Shown: piece after piece, positions 4,663 to 18,540 of the stretch
How the letters are laid out: every line of letters begins with the position of its first letter
Numbering within the stretch: position 1 is the stretch's first letter
IMG/VR virus record: IMGVR_UViG_3300020576_003495
Location: 114,171 to 178,170 of that record
DNA length: 64,000 nt
Origin: a virus
Lineage: Duplodnaviria; Caudoviricetes
Reading direction: 5' to 3' (one strand)
Notes under the pieces: model-generated
Databases searched by the model: none
Told to the model about the DNA's origin: nothing
Seen by the model: the letters and a program-made list of their open reading frames with translations, nothing else
Translations under genes and position numbers: made by a program

Positions 4663-4765
4663 TCCCCACAAAAATAATTTCAAAAAATAGTTGACACTTC
4701 GTTTTTAGGTGAGTTACCATAGCAACACTTCTGGGGGATTCCTCAGAGCTAATCGGATCAGAACC

Positions 4766-4894: not shown

Positions 4895-4923
4895 AACTCA
4901 CCCCCTCTAACTCTAAAAAGAGA

Positions 4924-4962
4924 AGCCCAAGACCCTAACGGATTTTGGGCTTTTCCCATTTT
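4924..4962 (+). terminator. intrinsic terminator
   Basis: AGCCCAAGA...TTTTGGGCT stem followed by T-rich tract. Confidence 0.6.
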
Positions 4963-4995
4963 TGCAACATGAAATGAAGTTTTTGAAGAAAGTGC

Positions 4996-5024
4996 TTGAC
5001 AAATGGTTTGATGTTCTGTAGAAT
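4996..5024 (+). promoter_or_regulatory. sigma70-like promoter for the RNA island
   Basis: TTGACA-17 nt-TAGAAT. Confidence 0.8.
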
Positions 5025-5522
5025 GCGAACTGTTGAATCAAGAAAGGAAGCAAGATGCAAAAAGAATGGATGCGGAGAATTTTCCGCTAGTAGTAACAGT
5101 GGATGCGCAACGAGGGTGCATACCCCACTTAAAACATGGTAGAACGGGCGGGACTTAGGATCGTAACCCTAGTGTGGGCGAAAAGATCAAGTTCATAAGC
5201 AAGCACCTTGCGACAATAGCGAGCAGCGATAGGGTAGGTCAGATTTTGCCAGACTTCGGGGATTTCATGATAACGCCTGACAATAGTTCGCAGCGATAGC
5301 AGGATGCTTCCTTATAAAGAAAAACGTCGCGGAGTGATAACAACGGGTGCCTAATATTGGCCGATGTGACACCACCAACGAGCCGCTAGCAGCGGTCAAG
5401 GGGATGAAAAGTCTCCACCAGTAAAACAACTTGTGAAGGTTGAGGTCGACTCAGGACACACCTTTGCGGATTGATCGGAGCAGGTTGTTTTACTGAATAC
5501 CTTCGCAAGAGGGTGTTGTTTC

Positions 5523-5602
5523 GGGGATGGGGACTGCTTGGTGTGGTCGCTTCACTGTCAATGAAGATATTCAGGCGAGTTCGAATCTCGTCATTCCCGC
5601 CA
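5523..5602 (+). tRNA. tRNA-Asp(GTC)
   Basis: Cloverleaf; CTTCA-CTGTCAA-TGAAG; ends GCCA. Confidence 0.9.
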
Positions 5603-5611
5603 CAGGAAATT

Positions 5612-5698
5612 GGGTTAGAAGCCGTAATGGTATGGCCCCGGACTGTAAATCCGAGAGCGTGGCTGCACGAGTTGGTTCGATTCCAACCTAACCCACCA
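5612..5698 (+). tRNA. tRNA-Tyr(GTA)
   Basis: CGGA-CTGTAAA-TCCG; long variable arm; ACCA. Confidence 0.9.
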
Positions 5699-5733
5699 TT
5701 GACATTCTTTACAGAGTGCAGTATTCTGTAATT

Positions 5734-6138
5734 ATGAAAATATGCACATCCTGCAAGCAAGAGCTTCCTTCGGAAGCGTTTTATAAGAACGCCGTTACGC
5801 TGGACGGTCTAGGTTCTCAGTGCAAGCGTTGCGACGGCGCGGGTAAGCAAGTTAAAGCTAGAGAAAATAAGCGCCGTCTTGTTGATGCTTTTGGCGGTTG
5901 TTGTAGCGTCTGCGGATACAGTAAATCCCTACAAGTTCTACAGTTTCATCACCACGAGCCTAACAAAGAACGTGGTGTGTCTGATTTACTTAGGAATAAA
6001 TACGAAGTAGCACTGGCCGAAGCTAAAAAGTGTATCTTGCTTTGCTCTAACTGTCATTTGGAATTACATGAAAAAGAGAGGCCACCATTAGTATATGGTG
6101 CTACTCGTAGGGGTAGGTCTAAAACAGTGGTATGCTAG
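5734..6138 (+). CDS. HNH-type endonuclease with Zn fingers
   Basis: CTSC..CKRC..CSVC; FHH...LLCSNCHLELH; own TTGACA promoter at 5699. Confidence 0.8.
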   Translation: MKICTSCKQELPSEAFYKNAVTLDGLGSQCKRCDGAGKQVKARENKRRLVDAFGGCCSVCGYSKSLQVLQFHHHEPNKERGVSDLLRNKYEVALAEAKKCILLCSNCHLELHEKERPPLVYGATRRGRSKTVVC

Positions 6139-6171
6139 ACATAGGGGGTTCGATTCCCTCACCCACCACCA
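6131..6171 (+). pseudogene. 3' remnant of a tRNA-Tyr-like gene
   Basis: Variable-arm hairpin TATG-CTAGA-CATA, T arm, ACCCACC-ACCA; no 5' half adjacent. Confidence 0.65.
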
Positions 6172-6450
6172 GAATTCGCTTGGTTAGCGAAGTAGTCAGA
6201 GCACAACTGACGATAACTCAAACGTGGGAGATGCCGTCACCTTAATAGGCAACCGTGGATGTCAGGGAGTCTGGCTCACTAAATCACTGGTAGAAGGATG
6301 TTGATTAGATACTCATCTGAATAAGGTCTTAGGGATTTGATCACCCTATCTCTACGGGTACCAGAGAGAGAAGCACTAACCATGCAGATCACCTTATTTT
6401 GTCCAACAGGGTCGCCCCCTGTAAGCAAAGCCTTGATTGATCATCAAGGT

Positions 6451-6531
6451 ACTCCAAGGTCGTCCAATGGGAAGATACCCTGCATTTTGCGCGGGGAGAT
6501 GCGGGTTTCGAAGTCCTGCCCTAAACGGAGT
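6451..6531 (+). ncRNA. degenerate tRNA-like element
   Basis: D-like arm, CCCTGC/GCGGGG stem, GCGGG-TTTCGAAGT-CCTGC T-like arm; no CCA. Confidence 0.45.
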
Positions 6532-6726
6532 CAAGAACAGCGTAACGCTTACGGTGTAAATCCGAAGCTTCGTGGGCTAATCTACCCCCACTGAGGTTAT
6601 CCCCACCAAGAAACAGAAGGGGCAGAATTTGTCGTTAATCAGAAAAGAATGCAGTTAGCCGAATAACCGGACTCTACTTGTAGAGCGACAGTGAAAGCCT
6701 GTACCGGGAGACACTAAGTATTATAC

Positions 6727-6753
6727 GGGGGTATGGCTCAATTGGCACAGCAC
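6727..6753 (+). pseudogene. 5' remnant of a tRNA-Ala-like gene
   Basis: GGGGGTA TG GCT CAATTGGCAC AGC, then interrupted. Confidence 0.65.
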
Positions 6754-6770
6754 TTATGGTATACTAGGGT

Positions 6771-7247
6771 ATGAGTTATATATTTGTACCCGCCCCTGAG
6801 AATTACCCCGGAACGATCTACCAGTACGGTAATAGAATTTTAGAACACCATTTAGTGTGGTGGTTGTCTACGGGGTTACTTGTTCCAGATGGTTACGTTT
6901 TGCACCATAAAGACGAAGACCCAACTAACAATGAATTTAGTAACTTGGAGTTGATGCTTGAGGGTGACCATATCCGCCACCACAACACACAGCACACCAT
7001 TGCTAGATTTGTATGCCGTAGGTGCGGAAATACGTTTGACCGAAATACCAGAGTTATTTCTGATGGGTCAAAACATATCTATTGCTCAAAAAGGTGTTCA
7101 GCGCTCAGCACATCAGGAAGATGCCGCCTTAGCGAAGATATGAAGGAAAAAGTGCGGTTGCTTAGAATTTCTGGTGGGTCGACTAGAAGTATTTCCAGAG
7201 AGTTAGGTATTAGTCGCAACACTGTGATGAAGTATTGGGGGATATAG
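6771..7247 (+). CDS. HNH homing endonuclease with Zn finger and C-terminal HTH
   Basis: LHHKDEDPTNNEFSNL; SISRELGISRNTV. Confidence 0.9.
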   Translation: MSYIFVPAPENYPGTIYQYGNRILEHHLVWWLSTGLLVPDGYVLHHKDEDPTNNEFSNLELMLEGDHIRHHNTQHTIARFVCRRCGNTFDRNTRVISDGSKHIYCSKRCSALSTSGRCRLSEDMKEKVRLLRISGGSTRSISRELGISRNTVMKYWGI

Positions 7248-7308
7248 ATGGGCTAAACAACTGATTTGCAATCAGTTAGGGACGGATCGTTACCGTCATT
7301 CTCCACCA
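7237..7308 (+). tRNA. tRNA-Ala(TGC), atypical D and T loops
   Basis: G3:U70; ACTGA-TTTGCAA-TCAGT; ACCA; overlaps the HNH stop. Confidence 0.75.
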
Positions 7309-7408
7309 AGTTTCAAGCTAGACGGCAAGATTGAGCTACGGGTGCTCTCTTGTTCGTGACAAGCCAGTAAGGCTCCCCAAAAGAGATAGCTGGTCGCTTT
7401 TTTACAAT

Positions 7409-7492
7409 GCGAGTGTGGCGTAATTGGTAGCCGCAGCGGTTTTAGAAGCCGCCGTTAATTCGTGGTGGGTTCGACTCCCCCCACTCGCACCA
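7409..7492 (+). tRNA. tRNA-Leu(TAG)
   Basis: GCGGT-TTTAGAA-GCCGC; ACCA. Confidence 0.9.
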
Positions 7493-7500
7493 AGTTTTAT

Positions 7501-7578
7501 CTACCTGTCGCCTAGTCTGGTATGGCCCCTGATTTGGGATCAGGCATAACCTCAGTTCAAATCTGAGCAGGTAGACCA
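7501..7578 (+). tRNA. tRNA-Pro(TGG)
   Basis: CCTGA-TTTGGGA-TCAGG; ACCA. Confidence 0.92.
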
Positions 7579-7659
7579 GAATACTCCGTCATTGCGACTT
7601 GCACAGCAGCAGTGCCGGGAAAGGCAGTGTGCAAGCTGCCTGAGAGTTTTATTAGATTT

Positions 7660-7735
7660 GCCCCCTAAGCACATGTGGACGTGTGTCAGTCTCCAAAACT
7701 GAAGGTAGGCGGTTCGAGGCCGTCAGGGGGTGCCA
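7660..7735 (+). tRNA. tRNA-Trp(CCA)
   Basis: TCAGT-CTCCAAA-ACTGA; GCCA. Confidence 0.9.
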
Positions 7736-7758
7736 ATGAAAGTAATTGCAAATACCCA

Positions 7759-7787
7759 TTGACAAATCGGGGGAGCTTTTATATAAT
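7759..7787 (+). promoter_or_regulatory. consensus sigma70 promoter
   Basis: TTGACA-17 nt-TATAAT directly upstream of the ncRNA at 7799. Confidence 0.9.
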
Positions 7788-7798
7788 TAGTAAAACAC

Positions 7799-8141
7799 TG
7801 TTAGATGCGTGTTTTTGGAGGTGGGCTTAGAAGCAGCCATCCTTAATGAGTAGGGCAAGTGCTGTATGCGGATACACATAGGCTGAGAAGGGCATCATTC
7901 AGGCCGAAAAGTTCAATAGGGTTTTGTGTGGATTCTTAGGGAGGCTGGCGTTAGGCCAGATAGCCGAAAGACGAAGCAAAATCACGCCAAGGCAGCTTCG
8001 CAAACTGCTGAAGGAATGGGAGTAGCACTCCCTGAGAACGAATGGGCGTACAGGGCCACACAGCTAGTATCAAGGGGAAGTTGCCGGTAATCCCCACGAT
8101 CCCTTTTGGCGTGACAGCACACCAAGAATACGCATCTAACA
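7799..8141 (+). ncRNA. ~340-nt structured RNA containing a split 23S rRNA L11-binding (H43/H44) mimic, copy 1
   Basis: 20-bp closing stem; GGCTTAGAAGCAGCCATCC ... GCGTGACAGCACAC; paralogue at 11582. Confidence 0.8.
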
Positions 8142-8157
8142 CTGTTGTAAAAAGTTT

Positions 8158-8196
8158 GGCGAGGAGGTTGTTGGTTACCAGACAGGCTCATAACCT
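8158..8196 (+). pseudogene. 5' remnant of tRNA-Met(CAT)
   Basis: GGCGAGG...CAGG-CTCATAA-CCT, then interrupted. Confidence 0.7.
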
Positions 8197-8235
8197 TTTT
8201 CGCTAGTTGTGTTATGATACCCGTGGGGGTATGCA

Positions 8236-8688
8236 ATGACACACTTACTATGTTGCAGTTGTAAAGAAAGCAAGCCTTTAGCTAGCTTTTCCAAAGACAA
8301 GAGTTCAAAGCGTGGGTACGCTAGTAAATGTAAAGACTGCCATAATACCTACGTGCGTACTGTGTGGTACCCAAAGAACAAGGATAAGCAGGTAGCGTCT
8401 GTTGCTCGTTTTAAAACAGCCAACAGACTGAAAGAAATCGCTTGGCGGCACGGTGTTCCGTTAGCGGATGTAGAAGAAGCAATAGAGCGCAGTTCTGGGG
8501 CTTGTGAAAGCTGCGGTTCCACTGTCTCTGTTGTGCTAGACCACTGCCACACCACGTCTAAAGTTAGAGGCGTCTTGTGCATGCGTTGTAATACAGTTTT
8601 AGGTAGGCTAGGGGATTCTTACGAGAGTGTTAAACAGCACATGGAGAGTTTGCTGGCCTATTTGGAAAAAAGTTTCGCGGGTGAGTGA
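8236..8688 (+). CDS. endonuclease VII-like HNH endonuclease
   Basis: CESC..LDHCHTTSKVRGVLCMRCN. Confidence 0.9.
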   Translation: MTHLLCCSCKESKPLASFSKDKSSKRGYASKCKDCHNTYVRTVWYPKNKDKQVASVARFKTANRLKEIAWRHGVPLADVEEAIERSSGACESCGSTVSVVLDHCHTTSKVRGVLCMRCNTVLGRLGDSYESVKQHMESLLAYLEKSFAGE

Positions 8689-8753
8689 AACGTCTTACAC
8701 AATGGGTTCATATCCCATTAACAGCAGGGTTAGACTCCCTGTACCCGCAACCA
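8676..8753 (+). tRNA. initiator tRNA-fMet(CAT)
   Basis: C1:A72 mismatch; ATGGG-TTCATAT-CCCAT; ACCA; overlaps the endonuclease stop. Confidence 0.85.
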
Positions 8754-8755
8754 GT

Positions 8756-8882
8756 TTCTGTGGCGTAAATAACGATTTCCTCAATGCCAATGAAGTAACG
8801 TGGGTTCGAATCCCATCGGCTCGTAAGGGCTGTCGTCTAGTGGTTAGGACACTAAAAATTTCGTTGTTGCTTGTTCCCAGAA
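8756..8882 (+). ncRNA. YrlA-type Y RNA with permuted tRNA-like domain
   Basis: Closing stem CTGTGGCGTA/GCTTGTTCCCAG; T arm GTGGGTTCGAATCCCAT precedes D arm GTCTAGTGGTTAGGAC. Confidence 0.75.
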
Positions 8883-8894
8883 TTAAACAAAGGC

Positions 8895-9130
8895 CAGAAG
8901 CCTAAGTAGTTCCCCGAGCATACGGTAAACGTGGGGTTCCCTTGAACAGACTGTTCTTCAACTTCTGTTCGGGGGGATCATGCGACAGTTTTACGGTGTG
9001 TGCTTTCGTGCCGGTTCTACTAGAATCAAAATTTTATCAAAGCATAGAACCTTGGTGGGGGCTAGGAAAGCCTCAAAATCACTAAAGGTCAGCAGTTGTA
9101 TTTACAGAATTACGTGGGGGCTTGTTCCTG
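8895..9130 (+). ncRNA. large RNA closed by a Y-RNA-like stem
   Basis: Ends GGCTTGTTCCTG pairing with CAGAAGCC; long internal hairpins. Confidence 0.45.
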
Positions 9131-9162
9131 TGTTCATAGAAGGATCACCCCAGTAGCAGATT

Positions 9163-9228
9163 TGCGTGGTGTATGGTTACCGTTACTTCTATCTTAGTGA
9201 AATCACACGGTTACCGCTTGTTCCCGCA
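9163..9228 (+). ncRNA. minimal Y-RNA-like hairpin
   Basis: TGCGTGGTGTA...GCTTGTTCCCGCA. Confidence 0.6.
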
Positions 9229-9237
9229 TTTATTTAT

Positions 9238-9314
9238 TGCTTGTTAGCTCAGTCCGGCAGAGCATTGTCTTGATAAGGCACAGGTCGTCGGTTCAAATCC
9301 GACACAAGCAACCA
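9238..9314 (+). tRNA. tRNA-Ile(GAT)
   Basis: TGTC-TTGATAA-GGCA; ACCA. Confidence 0.92.
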
Positions 9315-9319
9315 AGTTT

Positions 9320-9380
9320 CGGTGGTGTTGGTTAGTCGTTCTTCTTTCGGTGAAAAATCCGACTAGCTGTTTGTTCCCCG
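9320..9380 (+). ncRNA. minimal Y-RNA-like hairpin
   Basis: CGGTGGTGTT...GTTTGTTCCCCG. Confidence 0.55.
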
Positions 9381-9441
9381 ATTAATTTCCCCAGTCTTAG
9401 TGGCGGGATGGTCTTAGGTATTTATACCCACAGGAGTCAAC

Positions 9442-9942
9442 ATGTCCCCCGAACAGAAACAAGCCACATCCGAAGGTATTGAGAATGCTTTAGCTAGCGT
9501 ACCCCCCGAGATTGTTGATGAAGCCCTACGCTTCTGGTATGCCTACGCAAAACTCCATTATCGTTTTACATCGGCACAAGTCCTCGTTTCTTTCCTTGCT
9601 CGCAAGGGCACAACACCCGGAAATGGCAAGGGTTGGCGGGATTGTTGGGGGTCGATTTGCGTGAAAGCCAAAAAGCAAGGCATCATGCAAAAAGTGGGGA
9701 TCATGGTCACCACTGAGAAGCATACCCACATGGGTCACGGTGCGTACTGGCAGTCCAAGGTTTATGAAGGTGGGGATGAGCAGTATCGAAACAGCCCCGA
9801 GCAGGATTTGAAGCGTGCGCTGTACATGCGCTGGCTCAAGAAGGATTATGAGAATCTGCGTGACTACACGGATGACGTGTTTTCGATGGGGGTCAAGTTT
9901 GCCCTTGAGAACAAAGAGTACGTTGCGGGGATAAAAATTTAA
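9442..9942 (+). CDS. hypothetical protein
   Basis: AGGAG RBS, 166 aa. Confidence 0.75.
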   Translation: MSPEQKQATSEGIENALASVPPEIVDEALRFWYAYAKLHYRFTSAQVLVSFLARKGTTPGNGKGWRDCWGSICVKAKKQGIMQKVGIMVTTEKHTHMGHGAYWQSKVYEGGDEQYRNSPEQDLKRALYMRWLKKDYENLRDYTDDVFSMGVKFALENKEYVAGIKI

Positions 9943-9978
9943 CTGTGTGTGCTAACGTACAGACAGGTAGTTTCAACT

Positions 9979-10053
9979 GTGTCCCTGACAGAGAGGCCGA
10001 TGTGCAGGATTGCAAACCCTGATAGCCCGGTTCAATTCCGGGGGGACACTCCA
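9979..10053 (+). tRNA. tRNA-Cys(GCA)
   Basis: CAGG.-TTGCAAA-.CCTG; U73; CCA. Confidence 0.92.
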
Positions 10054-10211
10054 AGTTACGTAGCATCACGGAAGGAACGTGCGTGGCCCACGAGGTCGAT
10101 GGGGTACGGTCAGTTTTCATGTGGGGGTCGACGCCCTAACATGCAAAGCTTAATGCTGTGCTGACAAGAAGGTGAGCAGGGCGCAACCCTGTAAGACCTT
10201 CCTACGTATTT

Positions 10212-10289
10212 GCGCTCTGAGCTAGTCTGGTGATTCAGCGACAGTTTGAAGAACTGTAGAACTAGGTTCGATTCCTAGAGGGTGCACCA
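10212..10289 (+). tRNA. tRNA-Phe(GAA)
   Basis: ACAGT-TTGAAGA-ACTGT; ACCA. Confidence 0.9.
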
Positions 10290-10308
10290 AGATTACTGTA
10301 TAGTCGAG

Positions 10309-10383
10309 TGGGGTGATATGCAATGGATGCATACTTGGCTTTGAACCAAGGTTAGTCAGGTTCGATTCCTACCACCCCTTCCA
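10309..10383 (+). tRNA. tRNA-Gln(TTG)
   Basis: CTTGG-CTTTGAA-CCAAG; CCA. Confidence 0.85.
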
Positions 10384-10389
10384 GTTTTT

Positions 10390-10473
10390 AGAGAGATGAG
10401 CTTTGGAAGCAAACTATCTTGGAAAGGTAGTCCATCCGAAAGGGTGACAGTTCGATTCTGTATCTCTCTGCCA
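10390..10473 (+). tRNA. tRNA-Ser(GGA)
   Basis: CTATC-TTGGAAA-GGTAG; long V arm; GCCA. Confidence 0.88.
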
Positions 10474-10481
10474 TGTTTTAA

Positions 10482-10569
10482 GGTTAGGTGCGCGAGTGGC
10501 TAAAGCGTCTTGTTTGCTAAACAATGAGTCCGAAAGGGCACTAGGGTTCGAACCCCTACCTAACCGCCA
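10482..10569 (+). tRNA. tRNA-Ser(GCT)
   Basis: TTGT-TTGCTAA-ACAA; long V arm; GCCA. Confidence 0.9.
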
Positions 10570-10575
10570 TGTTAC

Positions 10576-10652
10576 GCCGGGTTGACGGAATTGGCATACG
10601 TGCAAGTTTCAAAAACTTGATCTTGCGGGTTCGACTCCCGCACCCGGCACCA
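10576..10652 (+). tRNA. tRNA-Leu(CAA), short variable region
   Basis: CAAGT-TTCAAAA-ACTTG; ACCA. Confidence 0.88.
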
Positions 10653-10658
10653 AGTTTT

Positions 10659-10735
10659 GCCCTTGTGGTGGAATAGGCATACACACGCGCTTGAGGGGTG
10701 CGGTTCTGTCGGTTCGAGTCCGACCAAGGGTACCA
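10659..10735 (+). tRNA. tRNA-Leu(GAG), short variable region
   Basis: CGCGC-TTGAGGG-GTGCG; ACCA. Confidence 0.88.
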
Positions 10736-10741
10736 GTCTAT

Positions 10742-10812
10742 GCCCTCACTATCGAATAGCATCAGGTTTCCTAAACCAGATTGTGACAGTTAAACTCTGT
10801 CTGAGGGCACCA
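10742..10812 (+). tRNA. tRNA-Arg(CCT), non-canonical
   Basis: GCCCTCA/TGAGGGC; loop TTCCTAA; tiny D arm; ACCA. Confidence 0.75.
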
Positions 10813-10813
10813 T

Positions 10814-10884
10814 ACCCCGACTGTGGGACAGATTTTGGCCTTCTAAGCCAAAAATGGGAGGTTCGAAACCTTCTCGGGGTGCCA
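10814..10884 (+). tRNA. tRNA-Arg(TCT), non-canonical
   Basis: ACCCCGA/TCGGGGT; loop CTTCTAA; tiny D arm; GCCA. Confidence 0.8.
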
Positions 10885-10890
10885 AGTTTT

Positions 10891-10964
10891 GCGGATGTAG
10901 CTTAGTGATAAAGCGCTTGTTTGCCAAGCAAGATACGCGAGTTTGATTCTCGTCTTCCGCTCCA
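10891..10964 (+). tRNA. tRNA-Gly(GCC)
   Basis: CTTGT-TTGCCAA-GCAAG; TCCA. Confidence 0.92.
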
Positions 10965-10970
10965 AGTTTC

Positions 10971-11045
10971 GCCCTTGTAGCACAGTGGCAGTGCACTCGC
11001 TTGGTAAGCGAGAGGTCGTGGGTTCGATTCCGACCAAGGGCACCA
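10971..11045 (+). tRNA. tRNA-Thr(GGT)
   Basis: CTCGC-TTGGTAA-GCGAG; ACCA. Confidence 0.92.
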
Positions 11046-11051
11046 AGTTTC

Positions 11052-11126
11052 GCCCTTTTAGCGCAGTGATAGAGCAATCGTTTCGTAAGCGATAGGTCGT
11101 CTGTTTGATTCAGACAAGGGGCACCA
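11052..11126 (+). tRNA. tRNA-Thr(CGT)
   Basis: ATCGT-TTCGTAA-GCGAT; ACCA. Confidence 0.9.
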
Positions 11127-11136
11127 GAGTTTTAAT

Positions 11137-11213
11137 GGGACGTTAGCTCAGTCGGTAGTAGCACTCGCCTCTTAAGCGATAGGTCGTCAGTTCGATCCTG
11201 ACACGTCCTACCA
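11137..11213 (+). tRNA. tRNA-Lys(CTT)
   Basis: TCGC-CTCTTAA-GCGA; ACCA. Confidence 0.92.
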
Positions 11214-11275
11214 TCACATACTCCTTGACAAACTGTGGGGATTGGATTATCATTACTCCATAGTCAATCAACGGA

Positions 11276-11575
11276 GTGATGATCATGTGGAATATAGTAA
11301 TCGAAGGTAGTCAGGAAGTGTACGTTCGCCATAATAATGAAATCGTGGCCCGGTTCAAGTACGCATCCCCCAAGGCCAGTGCCAAGCATTTTGTGAAGTT
11401 TCTGAAGGCGAACTACAGCCCCGAAGAATACTTTGCCAAGCGCAAGTTGGGCATCCCGCCTTTGCGTATCCTTCATCAAAAGGGGTACGTCAGCTACAAC
11501 GTTGAACGTGCCGACAAGGAAGCTATTGCGGGGGCTAAGAAGGTTTGGGCGATGTATGATCGTCTGAGTTTTTAA
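11276..11575 (+). CDS. hypothetical protein
   Basis: Promoter at 11225 and AACGGAGTG RBS. Confidence 0.75.
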   Translation: MMIMWNIVIEGSQEVYVRHNNEIVARFKYASPKASAKHFVKFLKANYSPEEYFAKRKLGIPPLRILHQKGYVSYNVERADKEAIAGAKKVWAMYDRLSF

Positions 11576-11581
11576 AGTTTC

Positions 11582-11917
11582 GGTGTTCGTAGAGGGTGGG
11601 CTTAGAAGCAGCCATCCCTTAAAGAGTAGGACAAGTGCTGTATGCAGGTACACATAGGCAGTTTAAGGGCATAGTTAACTGGCCGAAAAGTTCAATAGGG
11701 TTTGTGTGGATTCTTAGAACGGCTTGGGGTCTGGACTCCAAGTACCAATCGAAAGACGAAGCAAATCACGCCAAGGCAGTCTCGCAAACTGCTGAAGGAA
11801 TGGGGGTTGCACCCACTGAGAGCGAATGGCATACAGAGCCACACGGCAAGTATCAATGGAAGGCAGAGATGCTAAATCCAACGATTCCTTTTAGCGTAGT
11901 AGCACACTACGAACACC
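11582..11917 (+). ncRNA. ~340-nt RNA with split 23S rRNA L11-binding mimic, copy 2
   Basis: Closing stem GGTGTTCGTAG/CTACGAACACC; same conserved blocks as 7799..8141. Confidence 0.8.
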
Positions 11918-11976
11918 ACCCATTTTTAGGAGATTTATCATGCGTTCAGAAGAAAGTGACAAACGCCCCGAATAAT

Positions 11977-12051
11977 GGGCGTGTAATTCAATTGGGAGAA
12001 TCACCGGCTTTTACCCGGTTTACCAGAGTTCAAATCTCTGCGCGCCTACCA
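11977..12051 (+). tRNA. tRNA-Lys(TTT)
   Basis: ACCGG-CTTTTAC-CCGGT; ACCA. Confidence 0.88.
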
Positions 12052-12069
12052 GTTGCAAGTAATTTCAAT

Positions 12070-12103
12070 GGTGATTGAAGAGCAAATTGGCCGCGCCAGC
12101 AGC
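12070..12103 (+). pseudogene. 5' remnant of a tRNA-His-like gene
   Basis: GGTGATTG AAGAGCAAA..CGCGCCA resembles the adjacent His D arm. Confidence 0.5.
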
Positions 12104-12115
12104 CATAGTTTCAAT

Positions 12116-12204
12116 GGAGTCGTAAGAGCAAAGAGGACGCGCCACACGGCTGTGAACCGTGTCTCGAAAGAGGTTAGTGGGTTCAAGCCCCACACGACTC
12201 CCCA
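12116..12204 (+). tRNA. tRNA-His(GTG) with extra variable arm
   Basis: G-1:C73; CACGG-CTGTGAA-CCGTG; CTC-GAAA-GAG arm. Confidence 0.88.
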
Positions 12205-12326
12205 ACTGCATCAAAGGCTTTAACGGAAGCTACTAATTAGCGCACGGGTGTTCCAGTTTTTCTTGTAGTCGTAGCTGTAACGGTAAAAAGTCTCGTATGA
12301 TTAAGCTATGCGAGGCGGGTAACAAT

Positions 12327-12403
12327 GCTGGTGTCGTCTAATGGACTAGGACATTTGACCTTCAATCAAAGCAATGTGGGTTCGACTCCCATCGCCAGCG
12401 CCA
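12327..12403 (+). tRNA. tRNA-Glu(TTC) with C33
   Basis: TTTGA-CCTTCAA-TCAAA; GCCA. Confidence 0.85.
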
Positions 12404-12439
12404 TTACTTAGTAAGAAATCTTTGTTGACCGATACCGTT

Positions 12440-12476
12440 CAAGGTGAGGCGGGTTTGACTCCCGTACCGGATACCA
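12440..12476 (+). pseudogene. 3' tRNA remnant
   Basis: GCGGG-TTTGACT-CCCGT ACCGGAT ACCA with no matching 5' strand nearby. Confidence 0.55.
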
Positions 12477-12544
12477 AGTTTCAATTCCGCAGAATCCAAG
12501 CAAGGTGCAAGGACTTGTCGGAAAGTGGGTGCAAAAAGATCAAT

Positions 12545-12633
12545 TCCCCGGTACTCTAATGGTAAGAGGCGATACTGTTAATATCGTGTAGTCGGCCTAG
12601 CGCCGTATAGAAGTTCGAGTCTTCTCTGGGGAG
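12545..12633 (+). tRNA. tRNA-Asn(GTT) with long variable arm, no encoded CCA
   Basis: TCCCCGG/CTGGGGA; CGATA-CTGTTAA-TATCG. Confidence 0.82.
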
Positions 12634-12638
12634 CACGT

Positions 12639-13046
12639 ATGAAGAATGGTGAGTATACTTTAGTCATAGCGCCTGAAGGGTATCCGGGCAAGAGGTACCG
12701 TGGTCGCTACTGCTATGAACATCATTTGGTTTGGTGGTTGAATACAGGTGAAGTCGTACTTGCTGGCGAGTTGATTCACCACAAAGATGAGGACAAGCGC
12801 AATAACGTTTTCCTTAACCTTGAGAAAATGTCAAAGACTTCTCATGATGCACACCACAGTAACCTACCGATTAAGTCGCCTGTTCTGGTGTCTCTTTTTT
12901 GTTTTTGGTGCGGTTCTGCTTTCACCTTGAGGAAGCATGTTTACGTGTGCAGGGTTAGAGCTAACGGGCATGCTGATGTGTGTTGTGGAAGGTCGTGCCA
13001 AGTCAAGAAGCAGCAGCATGACAAAAAAGTTAAAAAGGAAAATTAA
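12639..13046 (+). CDS. HNH homing endonuclease, paralogue of 6771..7247
   Basis: APEGYPG...EHHLVWW...IHHKDEDKRNN. Confidence 0.9.
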   Translation: MKNGEYTLVIAPEGYPGKRYRGRYCYEHHLVWWLNTGEVVLAGELIHHKDEDKRNNVFLNLEKMSKTSHDAHHSNLPIKSPVLVSLFCFWCGSAFTLRKHVYVCRVRANGHADVCCGRSCQVKKQQHDKKVKKEN

Positions 13047-13120
13047 GCTATCAGGGTATAGCCTCTGCCTCGAAAACAGAAGGTTCCGAAAGGGATGAGT
13101 TTCGATTACTCAATTTTCCA
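13037..13120 (+). tRNA. tRNA-Ser(CGA), 3' end incomplete
   Basis: GGAAAAT/ATTTTCC; loop CTCGAAA; V arm TCC-GAAA-GGG; overlaps the HNH stop. Confidence 0.7.
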
Positions 13121-13171
13121 CACTAAAACTGTTCGACTTCTGCTAAAATATTATTTTTGTGGAGTCGAACC

Positions 13172-13696
13172 ATGCGGATAAGTAAAAAACAAATAGCTAG
13201 GTTTTGGTCTAACGTGCAGAAAACAGATAGCTGTTGGCTTTGGTTGCGGCAACCAAATAATAAAGGCTACGGTAAGGTAACTATAAGGCCGAATAGTCAA
13301 GAGCGTGTAATGCTATTGGCACACAGGCTAGCTTGGCTTCTAGTTAAAGGTGAAATACCAGATGGGTTATTTGTCCTACACAAGTGCGATACTCCCTTGT
13401 GTTGCAATCCCGAACACTTATTCCTTGGAACTCAACAAGATAACATGGGTGATATGTGGGCTAAGGGGCGCAGTCGACTGCATGAGTTCAGGCACTTGGG
13501 GACGATTGCTGCACATACTGAAGTGGCTACGCAAAAGCGGAAAGATACGTTTATTGCCATTGAACACCAGAAGGGTAAGCGCAACTCGCAGTTTGGGTCT
13601 TTTTGGATTACCGATGGTAAAGTTAATAAGAAGTGGCGTTCTGAGTTGGGCTGTATCCCCTCTGGTTTTTTTAAAGGACGTAGTAAATTTTTTTAA
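13172..13696 (+). CDS. HNH homing endonuclease
   Basis: FWSNV..CWLW..GYG..AHR..VLHKCDTPLCCNPEHL. Confidence 0.92.
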   Translation: MRISKKQIARFWSNVQKTDSCWLWLRQPNNKGYGKVTIRPNSQERVMLLAHRLAWLLVKGEIPDGLFVLHKCDTPLCCNPEHLFLGTQQDNMGDMWAKGRSRLHEFRHLGTIAAHTEVATQKRKDTFIAIEHQKGKRNSQFGSFWITDGKVNKKWRSELGCIPSGFFKGRSKFF

Positions 13697-13701
13697 GTTT
13701 T

Positions 13702-13789
13702 GGAAACGTGGCAGAGTGGTCAATTGCACCGGCTTTGAATACCGGCAGTCCGAAAGGGCACGTGCGTTCGAATCGCACCGTTTCCGCCA
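13702..13789 (+). tRNA. tRNA-Ser(TGA)
   Basis: CCGG.-TTTGAAT-.CCGG; long V arm; GCCA. Confidence 0.92.
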
Positions 13790-13851
13790 TAAATTATTAG
13801 AATGTCCCCCCCTAGTGTAGAGTGTTAAAGTTGGCTTTTTTTAGGTGCGAT

Positions 13852-14274
13852 ATGAATAACTTTGCAAAGATTCTTAAAGGTGGGCCGGGTTCGGGTCGTC
13901 ATGCGGGAGCCTATTCACCCGCTCAAAGAAAAAAAATTGAAGAAAGATCACACATGCTCTTGCGTAATAGTCGTTTAAATGGGGGGGGTAAGCAGTCACA
14001 CACACCCGTAGTTGTTCCAATTTATCACAATAAAGACGCTAAAGACTCGGAACTGAATAGGAATGCCTATCAGATGCTAGTTGATAAAGGTCTAGTTAAG
14101 CATGTAAGCAGTGTAGATCACGTTAGAGAGCCGTGGACGTCTAAATTCACCCCCGAGCCTACTAAGTATAGGCAGCATGATCACACGTTGTTAACAGGGG
14201 AGTTAACAGATGCGGGTAAAGCACACCCAGCGGCTAGTTTGGCTGTTAATTCTAACGGTGAGTTTACTACTTAA
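13852..14274 (+). CDS. hypothetical protein with FAKILK-GGPGSG N-terminal motif
   Basis: Motif shared with 23000..23341. Confidence 0.75.
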   Translation: MNNFAKILKGGPGSGRHAGAYSPAQRKKIEERSHMLLRNSRLNGGGKQSHTPVVVPIYHNKDAKDSELNRNAYQMLVDKGLVKHVSSVDHVREPWTSKFTPEPTKYRQHDHTLLTGELTDAGKAHPAASLAVNSNGEFTT

Positions 14275-14286
14275 AGCCGCGTCCCC

Positions 14287-15111
14287 ATGTTTTCACATAT
14301 CCTTAAGTTCAACCACAACCATGGGGTTGATGGAAAGTTTTCATCGTCCAACGGTTCGGCGTCTGTTCAATCTACCGCCCCTGTAGGCATTCAATTTGTC
14401 TCCCCCAATGTGCGTGAAGGCACGGACATTAACTACGCCATGCGGCGTTCAGGCGGCACGTTACAGCGCCATTTCCGCAAAGACTTCCAAGCCGTTGACA
14501 ATCTTTTGGGGACGCAAGGCGCTCAAGAAGATGCAATAGGCGCATGGTCGGACGGTGGTGAGAATTCAATCGCACAATTTAGTGCTAACGACCTTCCATT
14601 AGAAAAGCTGAATGTTTCAGCCGCGATGAAAGGCTATTTAGCAGAACAGAAAGCCGTAGTTTCCTTTAAAACAGGAAAAGGCAACCAGAAGATGCATACG
14701 TTTGATGCGAACATTTCTGACCCTGTGTTGCTGAGCAAGGAACTGGTAGAGCAAGGACTCCCATTTCATACATTGCTCCCCCATGCAGGACATGAAGGAT
14801 TTCAGGTGATTGTGTTTAGCGACAACGCATCATCGAAAGAAGGTAAGGCGCTGTCCCTGAATGTAACCAAAGCGGCTAAGTCTTTCGGCAGCAAGCACAC
14901 CTATATGAAGGGTAGCGGGGGCTTCATTGGGAGTTGGGATACCCGTGAAGCAGGAAGAACAGAGTACAATAAAGTCATTGATCCCTATATTGCCAAGCAC
15001 CCGGAGTTGAAAGCCGGTTGGGACGCCATGGTGAAAAAGATGAAGCACCGTGTCACAAAGTTCATCAACATATTATTTAAGAAGGCTTTTACAGGAGTAT
15101 CCTATGCCTAA
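14287..15111 (+). CDS. hypothetical protein with ILK-FNHNH..GKF N-terminal motif
   Basis: 274-aa ORF. Confidence 0.75.
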   Translation: MFSHILKFNHNHGVDGKFSSSNGSASVQSTAPVGIQFVSPNVREGTDINYAMRRSGGTLQRHFRKDFQAVDNLLGTQGAQEDAIGAWSDGGENSIAQFSANDLPLEKLNVSAAMKGYLAEQKAVVSFKTGKGNQKMHTFDANISDPVLLSKELVEQGLPFHTLLPHAGHEGFQVIVFSDNASSKEGKALSLNVTKAAKSFGSKHTYMKGSGGFIGSWDTREAGRTEYNKVIDPYIAKHPELKAGWDAMVKKMKHRVTKFINILFKKAFTGVSYA

Positions 15112-15322
15112 GATAAATTTACCTGAGTTTCCCCCCTTAGACTCGAAACATTATCCCTCTGATGAAGCCATCTCTGCGGAGCTAAAAAGACGTAGAGCGT
15201 TGATTGACGCAGCATGGCCTGATGATCTTGAAGTGTCCGACGACGAACTGCATGAATTGGGTTACGCTGTAGAAAAGACCGGGGACAACAAGGGTCTTAA
15301 CGTGATCTTGGGGCGCGGTTAG
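15104..15322 (+). CDS. small acidic protein coupled to 14287..15111
   Basis: AGGAG RBS; start overlaps the end of the upstream gene. Confidence 0.7.
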   Translation: MPKINLPEFPPLDSKHYPSDEAISAELKRRRALIDAAWPDDLEVSDDELHELGYAVEKTGDNKGLNVILGRG

Positions 15323-15346
15323 TCTGCACGGTTGATTGGAGTTGCT

Positions 15347-16963
15347 ATGTTTGCTGCCCTACTAAGAAATGATATATCTTATGTCCTTAAAGGGGATGTG
15401 GTAGGCCACCCTTTCCGTGGAAACCAATATGGAAAAGGCGTATCCCAAGGCCAAGACTATACCGACAGTAAGGGCCGTGCACATATTGGTGATTTAGACC
15501 CAACACAGCGCAGAGCAGAGTCGGCGTTTTATGGTGCTATTGAAAAAGATTTGCCGTCGCTGATCAAAGCCTATCAGGAAAAGAACGGGCACACGATTGA
15601 CGCGGATAAGGTAAAAGAACTATCCCCCGATTTCCTGTCGAACCCTTCTTTGTTTGCTGCTGCCGTGCATGAGCCTAGTTCGTTGCTCTCCAAGGTGTTG
15701 TTTAGTACAGAACTGGATGCTAAGGCCAAAGCAGGGGATACTAGCCCCACGATACTGACCGCAGGTGGCAGTGGGTCGGGCAAGAGCGAAGCCATGCCGA
15801 TTGTGCTAAAGGCCATCAACGCTAAAAAGGGTGGTTTGGTTTTTGATTCTGTCTTGGGTAACTTTGGTTCAGCCAAGAGCAAGATTGATGAAGCCTTGGT
15901 TAAAACTAAAGGTGATGTGGTGATTGCCTACACCAACAGAAAACTTGAGGACGCTTTCCGTTCAAACGCTAAACGTGCACGCACAGTTTTGACGAAGACG
16001 TTGGTTGGTGCACATGTCGGTGCTTCTAATAATATTAGAAAGCTGGCAGAACACTACGCTGGAAATCCTCGTGTGAAAATCCACGTGGTCAATAATTTTG
16101 GGGGTGTCGAGGATATTCACCAAGGAAAATTGGAGGATGTTCCCACATACGGTTCAGATACAACCGATAAACTGCATGCAATTGCTGATACAATGCATGC
16201 CAACAAGGAAATTAGTGATGAAATCTACGCCCACATTACAAAAGGACGATCCGTTCAGAAAAGCTGCGCTCGAATTCTCAAAGAAACATCCGGGAAAAAC
16301 TTTGGACGATATTGCTTTGGAACAGGAGAAGGAATCCGATGCCAGAGCAGCGGAACACCTGAAGAATCCGAAGGTGCAAGCGGCGTTCGGAAAGGCGAGT
16401 CCGCAGGGCACCCCTTCCGGGGAAACCAATACACCAGCAAAGACATTGGAACAGGTGGTGGAACAAATCAATCAGGAGCTAGCGGAGACAGTTCCCTTCC
16501 ACTTCGGGCAGACGGGAAAGTAGAGCTAACGCACTGGTCGAATGCGGCTAATTTGAGCAGCATTGATCCTTCGCACTACGGTCACGGCTATGCGGGGGCT
16601 GAAAAAGCACGTAAGGACTCTGACCCTGATGATTGGGTCGACAGGAGTTACTACGGCATTGGTGTAGGCCAGCCGGGGGGCTATGAAAAAGAAGAAGGCT
16701 TGGGTAGTCACAAGTACATCAGTGGTGTTGATCCCAAGTCGCTCTACGATATTGTCAAAGACCCCGATGGGCTGAATCCCAAAGGCACGCTGGATAGCTG
16801 GACAAACCAGATGAGCCTGTATGAGAAAAACATCAAGGGCAAAGGGTATACAGGATACTGGTTGAAGCACCCGAGTCTAGGGATGGTTGCAGCGGTGTTC
16901 AAGCCCCTTGTCCCTGAGCAGTACATTGCCCCCGTACAGAAGTTCGCTAAGTTCTTCAGATAA
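15347..16963 (+). CDS. two-module protein: zeta-toxin-like P-loop kinase plus unknown domain
   Basis: Walker A AGGSGSGKS, LVFDSVL, RARTV; GHPFRGNQY repeated twice. Confidence 0.75.
   Translation: MFAALLRNDISYVLKGDVVGHPFRGNQYGKGVSQGQDYTDSKGRAHIGDLDPTQRRAESAFYGAIEKDLPSLIKAYQEKNGHTIDADKVKELSPDFLSNPSLFAAAVHEPSSLLSKVLFSTELDAKAKAGDTSPTILTAGGSGSGKSEAMPIVLKAINAKKGGLVFDSVLGNFGSAKSKIDEALVKTKGDVVIAYTNRKLEDAFRSNAKRARTVLTKTLVGAHVGASNNIRKLAEHYAGNPRVKIHVVNNFGGVEDIHQGKLEDVPTYGSDTTDKLHAIADTMHANKEISDEIYAHITKGRSVQKSCARILKETSGKNFGRYCFGTGEGIRCQSSGTPEESEGASGVRKGESAGHPFRGNQYTSKDIGTGGGTNQSGASGDSSLPLRADGKVELTHWSNAANLSSIDPSHYGHGYAGAEKARKDSDPDDWVDRSYYGIGVGQPGGYEKEEGLGSHKYISGVDPKSLYDIVKDPDGLNPKGTLDSWTNQMSLYEKNIKGKGYTGYWLKHPSLGMVAAVFKPLVPEQYIAPVQKFAKFFR
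16218..16523 (+). CDS. nested out-of-frame ORF, possible partner/antitoxin
   Basis: AAGGA upstream of ATG; helical protein-like composition. Confidence 0.45.
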   Translation: MKSTPTLQKDDPFRKAALEFSKKHPGKTLDDIALEQEKESDARAAEHLKNPKVQAAFGKASPQGTPSGETNTPAKTLEQVVEQINQELAETVPFHFGQTGK

Positions 16964-16968
16964 GTTTT

Positions 16969-16993
16969 GCCGGTTTCGCATAGTGGGATTGCC
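16969..16993 (+). pseudogene. 5' half of a split tRNA (Thr-like)
   Basis: GCCGGTT pairs with AACCGGC-ACCA at 17719-17729. Confidence 0.7.
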
Positions 16994-17064
16994 CTTACTA
17001 GCTTAGTGGCATTGCACTAAATCTTTTCTCCGTGTATACTGTTGGCTTTTGCGGAGACTAGCCG

Positions 17065-17607
17065 ATGAAAGGGATACCACTAACATACCCTTATAATGAT
17101 TGTGTGGGTTACATTCAACACAGTAAGGACGGCAGGGCGTATTTGTACCTATACAACCCAACAACTAAAAGAAGGCGTCTAATAGCTTACGCTAGGTATT
17201 TATTGTCTGTGGAGTTGGGGCGCTTTTTGCTGCCAGAAGAACAAGTTGACCACATAGACGATAACCCGCTTAACGATGCGTTGTCTAATCTACAGGTTCT
17301 CTCTGTGGATGACCACAAGAAAAAGACAGCTAAGAGTGCTGCCAGCAAAATAGAGTGGGTAGAGTTTTCTTGCCCTACATGCGGTGTTAAATTTAAACGC
17401 ACTAGGCGAATTGTTAACCAGAGTATGAAGTCTTATGGTGATAGTTGGGCTCCAAGCTGTTCGATAAGCTGCGCTACGGCACGCACTAAAGGTACATCTG
17501 ACGACACTAAGCTTAAAATAAAACAGCTTAGGCTTTTGGGGCAGTCTGGTTATGAAATAGCCAGTGCTCTAGGCGTTAGCAGGAACACGGTAATGAAGTA
17601 TTGGTAA
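17065..17607 (+). CDS. HNH homing endonuclease with C-terminal HTH
   Basis: VDHIDDNPLNDALSNLQ; C-terminus RNTVMKYW identical to 6771..7247. Confidence 0.9.
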   Translation: MKGIPLTYPYNDCVGYIQHSKDGRAYLYLYNPTTKRRRLIAYARYLLSVELGRFLLPEEQVDHIDDNPLNDALSNLQVLSVDDHKKKTAKSAASKIEWVEFSCPTCGVKFKRTRRIVNQSMKSYGDSWAPSCSISCATARTKGTSDDTKLKIKQLRLLGQSGYEIASALGVSRNTVMKYW

Positions 17608-17611
17608 TTTT

Positions 17612-17687
17612 GCTTTCGTGCCTCAATTGGTACAGGACAACTCTTGTAAGGTTGCATTTGTCGGTTCGAGTCCGACCGAAAGCTCCA
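17612..17687 (+). tRNA. tRNA-Thr(TGT)
   Basis: CAACT-CTTGTAA-GGTTG; CCA. Confidence 0.9.
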
Positions 17688-17729
17688 AGAACGCAGCTTG
17701 AGTGTGTTCGATTCACACAACCGGCACCA
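17688..17729 (+). pseudogene. 3' half of the split tRNA
   Basis: GTGTG-TTCGATT-CACAC AACCGGC ACCA. Confidence 0.7.
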
Positions 17730-17795
17730 AAATAATGCTTGACAAAACTGTTGCATAGAGTAGAATCACTTCCACTTATAACGGAGTGATTAAAT

Positions 17796-18080
17796 ATGAA
17801 TACTATTAAACAGGAGGATACCCCCGCCCGTCGACGTTACACCATTCAAACCGTGTATTACTTGCGGGATAAGGTAGTCCGTACCAATCATGCGGCACAC
17901 GCCAACAATGCCGTGCAGAACTGCGTAGGACACATGCAACTCAATCGCTATGCCGCCATGAGGGCGGAAGTGTTTGACAGCGCCAGCGGCGTGCTGCATG
18001 CGGTTATTACCCGTAGTATTGTTGGGCACATCGGTATCGTGTTCAAGCGTGAAGTGAAGGAGCACTACAATGGCGGATAA
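17796..18080 (+). CDS. hypothetical protein
   Basis: Promoter at 17739, AACGGAGTG RBS. Confidence 0.75.
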   Translation: MNTIKQEDTPARRRYTIQTVYYLRDKVVRTNHAAHANNAVQNCVGHMQLNRYAAMRAEVFDSASGVLHAVITRSIVGHIGIVFKREVKEHYNGG

Positions 18081-18489
18081 AATCTCTAGGCATGAGCAGT
18101 TGGTGCGTGCGGCTAAAGGGCGAGCCATTATCACGTCTTACTTGAATACCAAGACAGAACCCGTTCCCCGTGGGAAAATATTGGAAGACTGTGGAGACAG
18201 ACTGGCCGAGTTGGATTATACCGAATCGAGTCTGGACAACTTTCTGTACACCATGGGTAACAGCGGTTTGTTGACCAAGAAGCCCGACCCTACCGGAAAA
18301 TTATATCTGTGGAGTACCATGCCCAGCGATGGGGGCAAAGTGCCGTTGCGAAAGGCACCATCGAGTAAGGTCAAGGATAAACAGGACAAAGCTAGTCCAG
18401 CAGCGATTACACTGGACATTATCAAGTCGTCGGGGCGTGTTCGGTTGACGATCAACGGTCTGGTGATCGAAGTCGGTGTGATTGAGTAA
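18070..18489 (+). CDS. winged-helix-like protein
   Basis: GGAG RBS; LYTMGNSGLLTK...LYLW. Confidence 0.6.
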   Translation: MADKISRHEQLVRAAKGRAIITSYLNTKTEPVPRGKILEDCGDRLAELDYTESSLDNFLYTMGNSGLLTKKPDPTGKLYLWSTMPSDGGKVPLRKAPSSKVKDKQDKASPAAITLDIIKSSGRVRLTINGLVIEVGVIE

Positions 18490-18540
18490 GCACCCACCAA
18501 AAAACTCTTGACAAACGTAGATGGTTGCAGTAGACTGTAG

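Follow-up and report, generated by a model that had tools for sequence, protein, structure and literature searches.

Intronless homing is defined in textbooks as cutting the resident allele while carrying a resistant one. In phage T4, the free-standing GIY-YIG homing endonuclease SegB is encoded in the tRNA cluster; it recognizes a T-arm motif, cleaves the tRNA genes of relatives that lack a homing endonuclease gene (HEG) and spreads along with the surrounding tRNA region, and SegB is widely associated with tRNAs (PMC2330249, PMC13096335); the segB stop codon abuts or overlaps tRNA-Arg (PMC2330249). The T5 genes F-TflI/II/IV and the HNH genes of mycobacteriophage tRNA arrays lie between tRNAs and are said to diversify the tRNA repertoire (PMC2330249, PMC5966550), and in the Aeh1 mobE/nrdA "genes in pieces" a HEG splits a gene without an intron (cited in PMC2988022). 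Nuclease genes in phage tRNA arrays, the targeting of tRNA genes and a role in repertoire diversity are therefore already known (PMC2330249, PMC13096335, PMC5966550). Here we analyze the HEGs of a phage tRNA array within a stretch of 64,000 nucleotides (hereafter, the window), which constitutes the final 64 kb (positions 114,171 to 178,170; G+C 47%) of a single 178,170-bp contig, IMG/VR record IMGVR_UViG_3300020576_003495. Several of these genes are tightly linked to an intact tRNA gene and adjoin what appear to be relics of another, and at one site a Thr(TGT) gene is, by sequence comparison, broken by an insert bringing a different Thr(TGT). We favor intronless homing, completed by one-sided or illegitimate break repair that would leave relics and swap tRNA alleles, as the probable explanation. 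In the literature consulted, we found no account of insertion into a tRNA gene together with a same-anticodon spare and relics across nuclease families.

Nuclease genes of the tRNA array and their distribution among relatives

The tRNA array contains six nuclease open reading frames (ORFs), all with homing-endonuclease-type domains according to Pfam and PHROG, each with its own start and none located within a self-splicing intron or intein. These are HNH1 (5734-6138, +; phrog_2255 HNH), HNH2 (6771-7247, +; HNH_3 with a C-terminal helix-turn-helix [HTH], its stop codon inside tRNA-Ala), an EndoVII-type homing endonuclease (8236-8688, +; Endonuclease_7), HNH4 (12639-13046, +; HNH_3), HNH5 (13172-13696, +; HNH_3 with a zinc-binding His-Me loop, between Ser(CGA) and Ser(TGA)) and HNH6 (17065-17607, +; HNH_3 plus HTH, phrog_14913). 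All but HNH4 had been listed in an initial annotation of the stretch, which proposed five sites, here cases (a) to (e), where an endonuclease breaks a tRNA gene and supplies an isotype-matched replacement. HNH2, HNH4 and HNH6 are paralogs. The ORFs of HNH2, EndoVII and HNH4 end 10-13 nt into the next same-strand tRNA and those of HNH5 and HNH6 end 4-5 nt short of it, while the 3' end of HNH1 runs into the tRNA relic of case (a). The inserts hold only nuclease and tRNA, and an integrase-type element was ruled out, there being no integrase and no identical att repeats in them.

Searches of INPHARED and IMG/VR with the DNA and with the 543-amino-acid (aa), 166-aa and putative 432-aa capsid proteins yielded no close relatives, and close relatives were likewise not found in JGI metagenomes with the 543-aa protein as query. 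Assembled public runs, however, contained relatives at 78-98% of the 543-aa and 166-aa proteins of the region, and their contigs (L085-L095, all from a large protein collection) were compared with the window by BLAST map; the presence and absence counts given here cover the relatives with DNA. Four contigs (L089, L091, L092, L095) represent the same phage as the window, and the sole difference in L085 is a diverged patch within the 543-aa gene. A second variant (L090, L093, L094) lacks HNH1, EndoVII and HNH4, and in it an additional HEG, paralogous to HNH5, lies between Gly(GCC) and Thr(GGT); L088, from the same sample as L090, lacks HNH6. A third variant (L086, L087) is without HNH4, HNH5 and HNH6, and an HNH1-type gene separates its Glu and Asn tRNAs. 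HNH1, EndoVII, HNH4 and HNH6 are without counterpart in L090 and L088, where the flanks are collinear, and HNH2 is present in all relatives examined at the DNA level. This pattern is a classic HEG presence/absence polymorphism. Furthermore, as expected of co-conversion, sequence identity steps at the HEG sites, with linked tRNAs at 50-62% identity compared to 96-100% for the others.

A Thr(TGT) gene broken in its anticodon arm

The most complete interruption, case (e), involves HNH6. The 5' part of a tRNA-Thr(TGT) (16969-17002, +) starts GCCGGTT, with only a GTTTT spacer separating it from the stop codon of the 543-aa gene. HNH6 and an intact, carried tRNA-Thr(TGT) (17612-17687, +) follow, and these are succeeded by the 3' part of the broken gene (17688-17729, +), which comprises the variable arm, the T arm and AACCGGC-A-CCA. 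The two acceptor halves, GCCGGTT and AACCGGC, are complementary at 7/7 positions. A metagenome scan with the first 18 nt retrieved intact Thr(TGT) genes in four unrelated contigs (L118, L119, L121, L123). The first 24 nt of the 5' piece are identical to these genes, and the 3' piece aligns with them from the variable arm to the CCA with one compensatory T-stem change. The intact homologs have approximately 20 nt more in the anticodon arm, among them the anticodon itself; in the window, HNH6 and a different Thr(TGT) stand in their place. The ORFs beside the intact gene in L123 matched no Pfam family, and a two-part pattern for the intact allele, which was overly strict for the T stem, had no match in IMG/VR.

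The three relatives without HNH6 (L088, L086, L087) present a single uninterrupted Thr(TGT) at this site, followed in L088 by the same downstream flank as the 3' piece in the window, and the identity between L088 and the window changes from 84.6% to the left of the site to 98.9% to its right. The carried Thr(TGT) is 61-62% identical to the empty-site gene, which is also unlike the broken one, so that at least three unrelated Thr(TGT) alleles have been found at this site within the phage group. Because the halves match intact Thr(TGT) genes and the nuclease-free relatives are uninterrupted here, these comparisons identify case (e) as a Thr(TGT) gene broken in its anticodon arm by an insert bringing another Thr(TGT), in agreement with the two halves around HNH6 and Thr(TGT) that the initial annotation had described.

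The perfect complementarity of the acceptor halves could also be taken to mean that they belong to a functional split or intron-containing tRNA joined by splicing. This is very improbable, given that no group I or group II intron matched in Rfam at E<=1 across 4500-24500 (including RF00028), that a whole tRNA lies within the insert, that the missing nucleotides include the anticodon, and that the remnants of cases (a), (b) and (c) consist of a single piece or have no anticodon arm. Two specific forms of this idea were ruled out: a group I intron in a tRNA gene, there being no ribozyme core (as initially noted) and the (e) exons not making a complete tRNA, and a split or permuted functional tRNA, since the (e) halves lack the anticodon and relic (a) lacks the anticodon arm.

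Relics at the Tyr and Met sites

In case (a), intact tRNA-Asp(GTC) and tRNA-Tyr(GTA) genes (5523-5698, +) are linked upstream of HNH1, and a relic at the Tyr position (6111-6171, +) lies downstream. The relic, initially described as a 3' Tyr-like remnant, is real, but it is not a plain 3' half: it retains the acceptor 5' strand, a D-arm-like hairpin, the T arm (6144-6160) and the ACCCACC-A-CCA end, and it has no anticodon arm. The flank gaattcgcttgg directly follows the relic and, in L090, follows an uninterrupted tRNA-Tyr, with which the relic agrees over 8 nt at its start (GGGTAGGT) and 7 nt at its end (CCCACCA, including the CCA end). The block spanning Asp, Tyr, HNH1 and the relic (5515-6165) is replaced in L090 by 243 nt with other Asp and Tyr alleles, which are only 50-57% identical to those of the window, and the Tyr(GTA) of L090 folds as a clean cloverleaf (z -3.5).

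In case (c), the 5' part of an elongator-type tRNA-Met (8158-8195, +) extends through the anticodon loop CTCATAA and is followed by EndoVII, whose stop codon lies inside a downstream initiator-type tRNA-Met (8676-8753, +; C1xA72, GGG/CCC in the anticodon stem). The 5' Met remnant reported initially is borne out, as it starts at the start position of the uninterrupted tRNA-Met(CAT) of L090. That gene has the same upstream spacer and downstream flank that in the window enclose the relic, EndoVII and the initiator-type Met. The three Met sequences are mutually unlike, the carried Met being 58% identical to that of L090. The whole second variant (L090, L093, L094) has uninterrupted Tyr(GTA) and Met(CAT) genes between the same flanks and neither HNH1 nor EndoVII. 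Cases (a) and (c) are hence supported by comparison with a nuclease-free relative. The intact (c) allele was not found in a pattern scan of IMG/VR, and no isotype could be assigned to relics (a) and (c) by BLAST against phages.

Uninterrupted same-anticodon tRNAs, which the initial annotation had suggested looking for in related phages, thus exist at the Tyr, Met and Thr(TGT) sites, although their alleles do not match the remnants. The carried alleles are only 57-62% identical to the empty-site alleles of the relatives at these three sites; the replacement allele is thus not the one already present at the empty sites. The remnants also differ from the replacements, as had been noticed: a relic and its intact copy are roughly 45-60% alike, and a blastn-short search of the relics against the intact tRNAs of the genome detected no significant similarity except for one conserved T-arm match. 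Covariance-model scans of the excised relics gave T-arm-level matches only. Since the relics are too short to reach significance in such scans, their identification is based on position and on comparison with other sequences.

A site with an unsupported isotype match and a site with no broken tRNA

Case (b) has a tRNA fragment and an intact tRNA but no supported isotype match, and case (d) is not an example. In case (b), a 27-nt 5' tRNA fragment comprising acceptor and D arm (6727-6753, +) does lie upstream of HNH2, and it is identical in L090. The tRNA-Ala(TGC) downstream (7237-7308, +) is non-canonical, with G3:U70 (Rfam 24.8 bits). The fragment had been called Ala-like, yet its best matches among 248 phage tRNAs are not Ala, and its pattern had no match in IMG/VR. 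It is a real 5' tRNA fragment, and its isotype match with Ala is unsupported. The 550 nt between relic (a) and this fragment (6173-6726) are non-coding, approximately 95% conserved in L090 and without an Rfam family.

Case (d) had been listed as a CCA-less tRNA-Ser(CGA) followed by HNH5 and Ser(TGA). The Ser(CGA) gene (13037-13121, +) indeed has no encoded CCA, but both it and tRNA-Ser(TGA) (13702-13789, +) are intact, and nothing is broken or replaced. In L086, Asn, a Ser(CGA)-type tRNA (tRNA-clan match) and Ser(TGA) stand in a row with no nuclease gene, and in L090 the sequence GTTTT links the CCA end of Asn to Ser(CGA). Judging from these arrangements, Asn, Ser(CGA) and Ser(TGA) are ancestral neighbors and Ser(CGA) is not a broken resident. 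HNH4 is a clean 402-nt insertion in the window that takes the place of 7 nt (the last two CCA bases of Asn and the spacer), leaving the encoded CCA of tRNA-Asn(GTT) (12545-12634, +) clipped after C74. The HNH5 paralog of L090 (46%) is also a clean insertion, at C74|C75 of Gly(GCC). Both are ordinary spacer insertions by which no tRNA was broken or replaced. The proposed isotype match is supported for the Tyr, Met and Thr(TGT) sites, the broken (e) gene being itself Thr(TGT), and is unsupported for case (b).

A stereotyped spacer, CCA-AGTTT(T/C), joins most array tRNAs across 7400-11220. Because two HNH_3-type insertions sit after C74 at junctions of this type, with the one in L090 falling cleanly between C74 and C75, this junction may be a repeated insertion target.

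Recurrence across nuclease families and in other phages

The combination of a relic and an intact tRNA is found with three nuclease types (phrog_2255 HNH, HNH_3+HTH and EndoVII), and its orientation follows the nuclease family. The phrog_2255 type has the intact tRNA upstream and a 3' relic downstream, both in case (a) and in L086, where the T stem of the 3' tRNA relic following the HNH1-type gene equals that of the neighboring Glu. In the HNH_3+HTH and EndoVII types, a 5' relic precedes the nuclease gene and an intact tRNA follows it. The initial suggestion that several nuclease types converged is supported at the level of layout for these three types, and it fails for the two HEGs that are clean spacer insertions.

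Among IMG/VR loci with HNH_3 homologs, 30/80 have tRNAs nearby, and in at least 12 of the 80 a same-strand tRNA starts between -15 and +45 nt relative to the stop of the ORF, often precisely 10 nt before that stop. In 3/20 HEG-tRNA pairs tested, all three on unrelated contigs (L014, Ser; L049, Val; L051, Val), a 25-29-nt fragment of acceptor and D arm lies upstream of the nuclease gene and is 71-88% like the downstream tRNA, a score equaled by none of the control windows (0/300). The break after the D arm in these three loci matches that of case (b), and acceptor and D arm are also kept in case (e). The same HNH-tRNA adjacency occurs in Klebsiella phage RaK2 and Escherichia phage Bas91.

In four loci with Val-linked nucleases (L049, L051, L041, L076), a complementary stretch farther downstream pairs with the D-arm portion of the fragment (GGTAGAGCA), forming an 8-bp hairpin just before the nuclease start codon. 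In this nuclease subfamily the hairpin may be a regulatory element.

The hairpins of these four loci raise the question of whether relics are kept as RNA elements, that is, as tRNA-like processing signals or hairpins setting the ends and expression of HEG messages. Such a role would fit with the proposal that RNase processing at the segB/tRNA-Arg junction limits SegB (PMC2330249) and with the 100% conservation of the relics between variants that differ by 3-5% nearby, although this sample is very short. The relics of the window, however, have no significant fold (z 0.5 to -1.9). Moreover, an RNA role is compatible with homing and offers no alternative for the origin of the relics, and we regard it as an improbable explanation of the locus.

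tRNA allele turnover and debris

The identity between the tRNAs of the window and L090 is bimodal (96-100% or 50-63%), and Glu (72%) and Asn (89%) take intermediate values. Asp, Tyr and Met, which are HEG-linked, are among the low-identity tRNAs, in line with the suggestion that the nuclease units drive allele turnover. HEGs are a plausible driver but not the sole visible correlate of this turnover, since six or so alleles differ without a nearby nuclease gene. One such region was compared directly: L090 (8681-8924) has a different Leu(TAG) allele and both Pro(TGG) and Pro(CGG) where the window (7409-7578) has its own Leu(TAG) and a lone Pro(TGG), and a nuclease gene is present in neither.

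Pieces of tRNA also occur elsewhere in the array. In the debris at 12425-12476 (+), the 5' portion of an Asn gene like that of L086 runs at GGCGGGT into a 3' fragment; in L086 the two fragments flank the HNH1-like gene, the 3' fragment coming after it. No nuclease gene lies beside the debris at 8800-8851 or at 12053-12111. One of these two sites contains two abutting Glu-like pieces, first a 3' piece and then a 5' piece (with a weak Y-RNA-like Rfam match), and the other contains a 5' duplicate of the His tRNA.

These observations bear on a different account, in which general recombination, or selection for escape from host tRNA nucleases, shuffles the array, the relics are decayed tandem duplicates or segmental amplifications, and the HEGs are passengers of the spacers. 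At least six tRNAs differing by 37-43% between relatives with no HEG beside them, the debris lying away from HEGs at all three sites, the two clean spacer insertions and the documented tandem amplification of a tRNA-HEG unit by SegB (PMC13096335) are all in its favor. Nevertheless, the ostensibly HEG-free debris at 12425-12476 adjoins a HEG in L086, and the side on which a relic lies is specific to the HEG family. In case (e), HEG and tRNA sit inside an anticodon arm whose two gene halves still pair perfectly. Furthermore, relic and intact copy are not recent duplicates, because they share the low similarity given above while flanks are 95-99% identical among variants. Taken together, we consider this shuffling account unlikely, though less so than an RNA role or splicing.

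Homing with illegitimate repair, which we favor, must in turn be weighed against several results. Leu(TAG), Pro(TGG), Ile and both Lys tRNAs belong to the low-identity class with no HEG beside them in the window, and Glu too differs strongly between relatives with no HEG adjacent in the window. The relic alleles are unlike those at the known empty sites of the phage group, so that the direct precursor has not been seen, and intact copies of the broken (e) allele occur only in unrelated contigs. The joint movement of HEG and tRNA between contexts could not be followed, since beyond the phage group the nearest homolog of HNH6 shares just 40% identity. Case (b) has no known empty site, as all relatives with DNA carry HNH2, and the sole exact 19-mer match of fragment (b) inside a tRNA, in a genome scan, is a bacterial tRNA-Trp. 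HNH4 and the HNH5 paralog of L090 brought no replacement tRNA, and the Tyr of L090 is recognized by folding only, not by ARAGORN or Rfam. Overall, the observation made in the initial annotation is partly confirmed, and its interpretation is partly supported.

Other features of the tRNA array

ARAGORN predicted 29 tRNAs and a two-piece transfer-messenger RNA (tmRNA) of alpha-proteobacterial type in the window. Given this tmRNA and the putative 432-aa capsid protein, whose only relatives are distant and belong to Rhizobium, Rhodobacter and Stenotrophomonas phages, the sequence is that of a large orphan phage, probably with an alphaproteobacterial host. Non-canonical tRNAs missed by ARAGORN were read by eye and partly by Rfam: His(GTG) (~12112-12205; G-1, C73 and a long extra arm), Arg(TCT) (10814-10884; reduced D arm) and Arg(ACG) (~23453-23506; reduced D arm). 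Once these are counted, nearly all amino acids are covered by phage tRNAs. At 19522-19682, an Rfam tRNA match of 40.4 bits spans 161 nt, in which acceptor, D arm and T arm are normal and an insert of ~90-100 nt takes the place of the anticodon region.

The permuted alpha-type tmRNA (20663-21008) is directly followed by a minus-strand ORF (20943-21542, -) that is homing endonuclease-like (phrog_314, E 8e-9). A non-coding element of ~330 nt is present in two copies that are ~80% alike (7805-8140 and 11590-11920). Its start resembles the GTPase-associated center of 23S rRNA (weak Rfam LSU match, 11594-11638), and there is a consensus promoter at 7759-7787.

Proposed mechanism and implications

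Under the homing explanation, free-standing HEGs have colonized the tRNA array, each in close linkage with an intact tRNA gene. When related phages infect the same cell, the nuclease would cut the same-isotype tRNA gene of the phage that has no HEG there, the carried allele presumably being resistant, and the HEG-bearing genome would serve as template for break repair. Because good homology would be available on one side only, or only within the tRNA, one junction would be formed by short-homology or illegitimate repair; one-sided illegitimate break repair is known from T4 (PMC2988022). HEG and linked tRNA would be copied in, and part of the resident tRNA would be left as a dead relic. The HNH_3+HTH and EndoVII types would leave a 5' piece upstream and the phrog_2255 type a 3' or gutted copy downstream, whereas the two-gene insert within the anticodon arm of case (e) would leave both halves. 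Insertion would destroy the target, as with an intron-borne HEG, and a spare tRNA, not splicing, would keep the function. Once in place, a relic may act as a homology arm for later homing. Other array HEGs, such as HNH4 and the HNH5 paralog of the relative, would have inserted at a CCA end and left no relic, and repeated rounds would result in many unrelated alleles per anticodon.

A homing endonuclease is known to occupy an essential target in two ways, within splicing introns and within inteins, and a spare copy of the target would provide a third. It is possible, and we propose it tentatively, that self-compensating mobile units of this kind form a general class, in which a HEG with a spare tRNA kills the same-anticodon resident and replaces it without splicing, and in which leftover tRNA pieces act as portable homology arms that allow homing into any phage with that tRNA. 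If so, tRNA genes would be universal landing pads, the many unrelated alleles per anticodon would be explained, and, as shared targets and homology patches, tRNA genes might permit passage of HEG and tRNA between otherwise unrelated phages. Phage tRNAs counter the tRNA-cleaving defenses of the host, and fast swapping of tRNA alleles would bear on this arms race. In practice, standard annotation overlooks the tRNA relics and the non-canonical tRNAs of such arrays.

Comparison with known systems

The window resembles the SegB system in having free-standing nuclease genes in a phage tRNA array with ORF ends that abut the next tRNA. In contrast with SegB, its predicted nucleases are of the HNH_3, phrog_2255 HNH and EndoVII types, the insert lies within a tRNA gene or leaves a relic of it, and the broken and the linked tRNA share their anticodon. 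HNH-type nucleases between tRNA genes are shared with T5 and the mycobacteriophages, for which the texts consulted describe neither a relic-plus-replacement arrangement nor same-anticodon empty sites (PMC2330249, PMC5966550). As with group I intron HEGs in tRNA genes, insertion in the anticodon region would destroy the target site; unlike them, the window has no ribozyme core, a spare copy of the gene would make up for the lost function, and some of the bases of the target are gone. Aeh1 mobE/nrdA also involves a free-standing HEG inserted inside a gene, but the Aeh1 pieces are functional, whereas those of the window are apparently dead and a replacement is supplied. Lastly, elements that integrases insert at tRNA genes bring the 3' end of the tRNA in their attP. 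They likewise keep the gene intact with sequence of their own and leave a displaced remnant; the inserts of the window differ in having neither integrase nor identical att repeats, and in seemingly bringing a whole, divergent tRNA.

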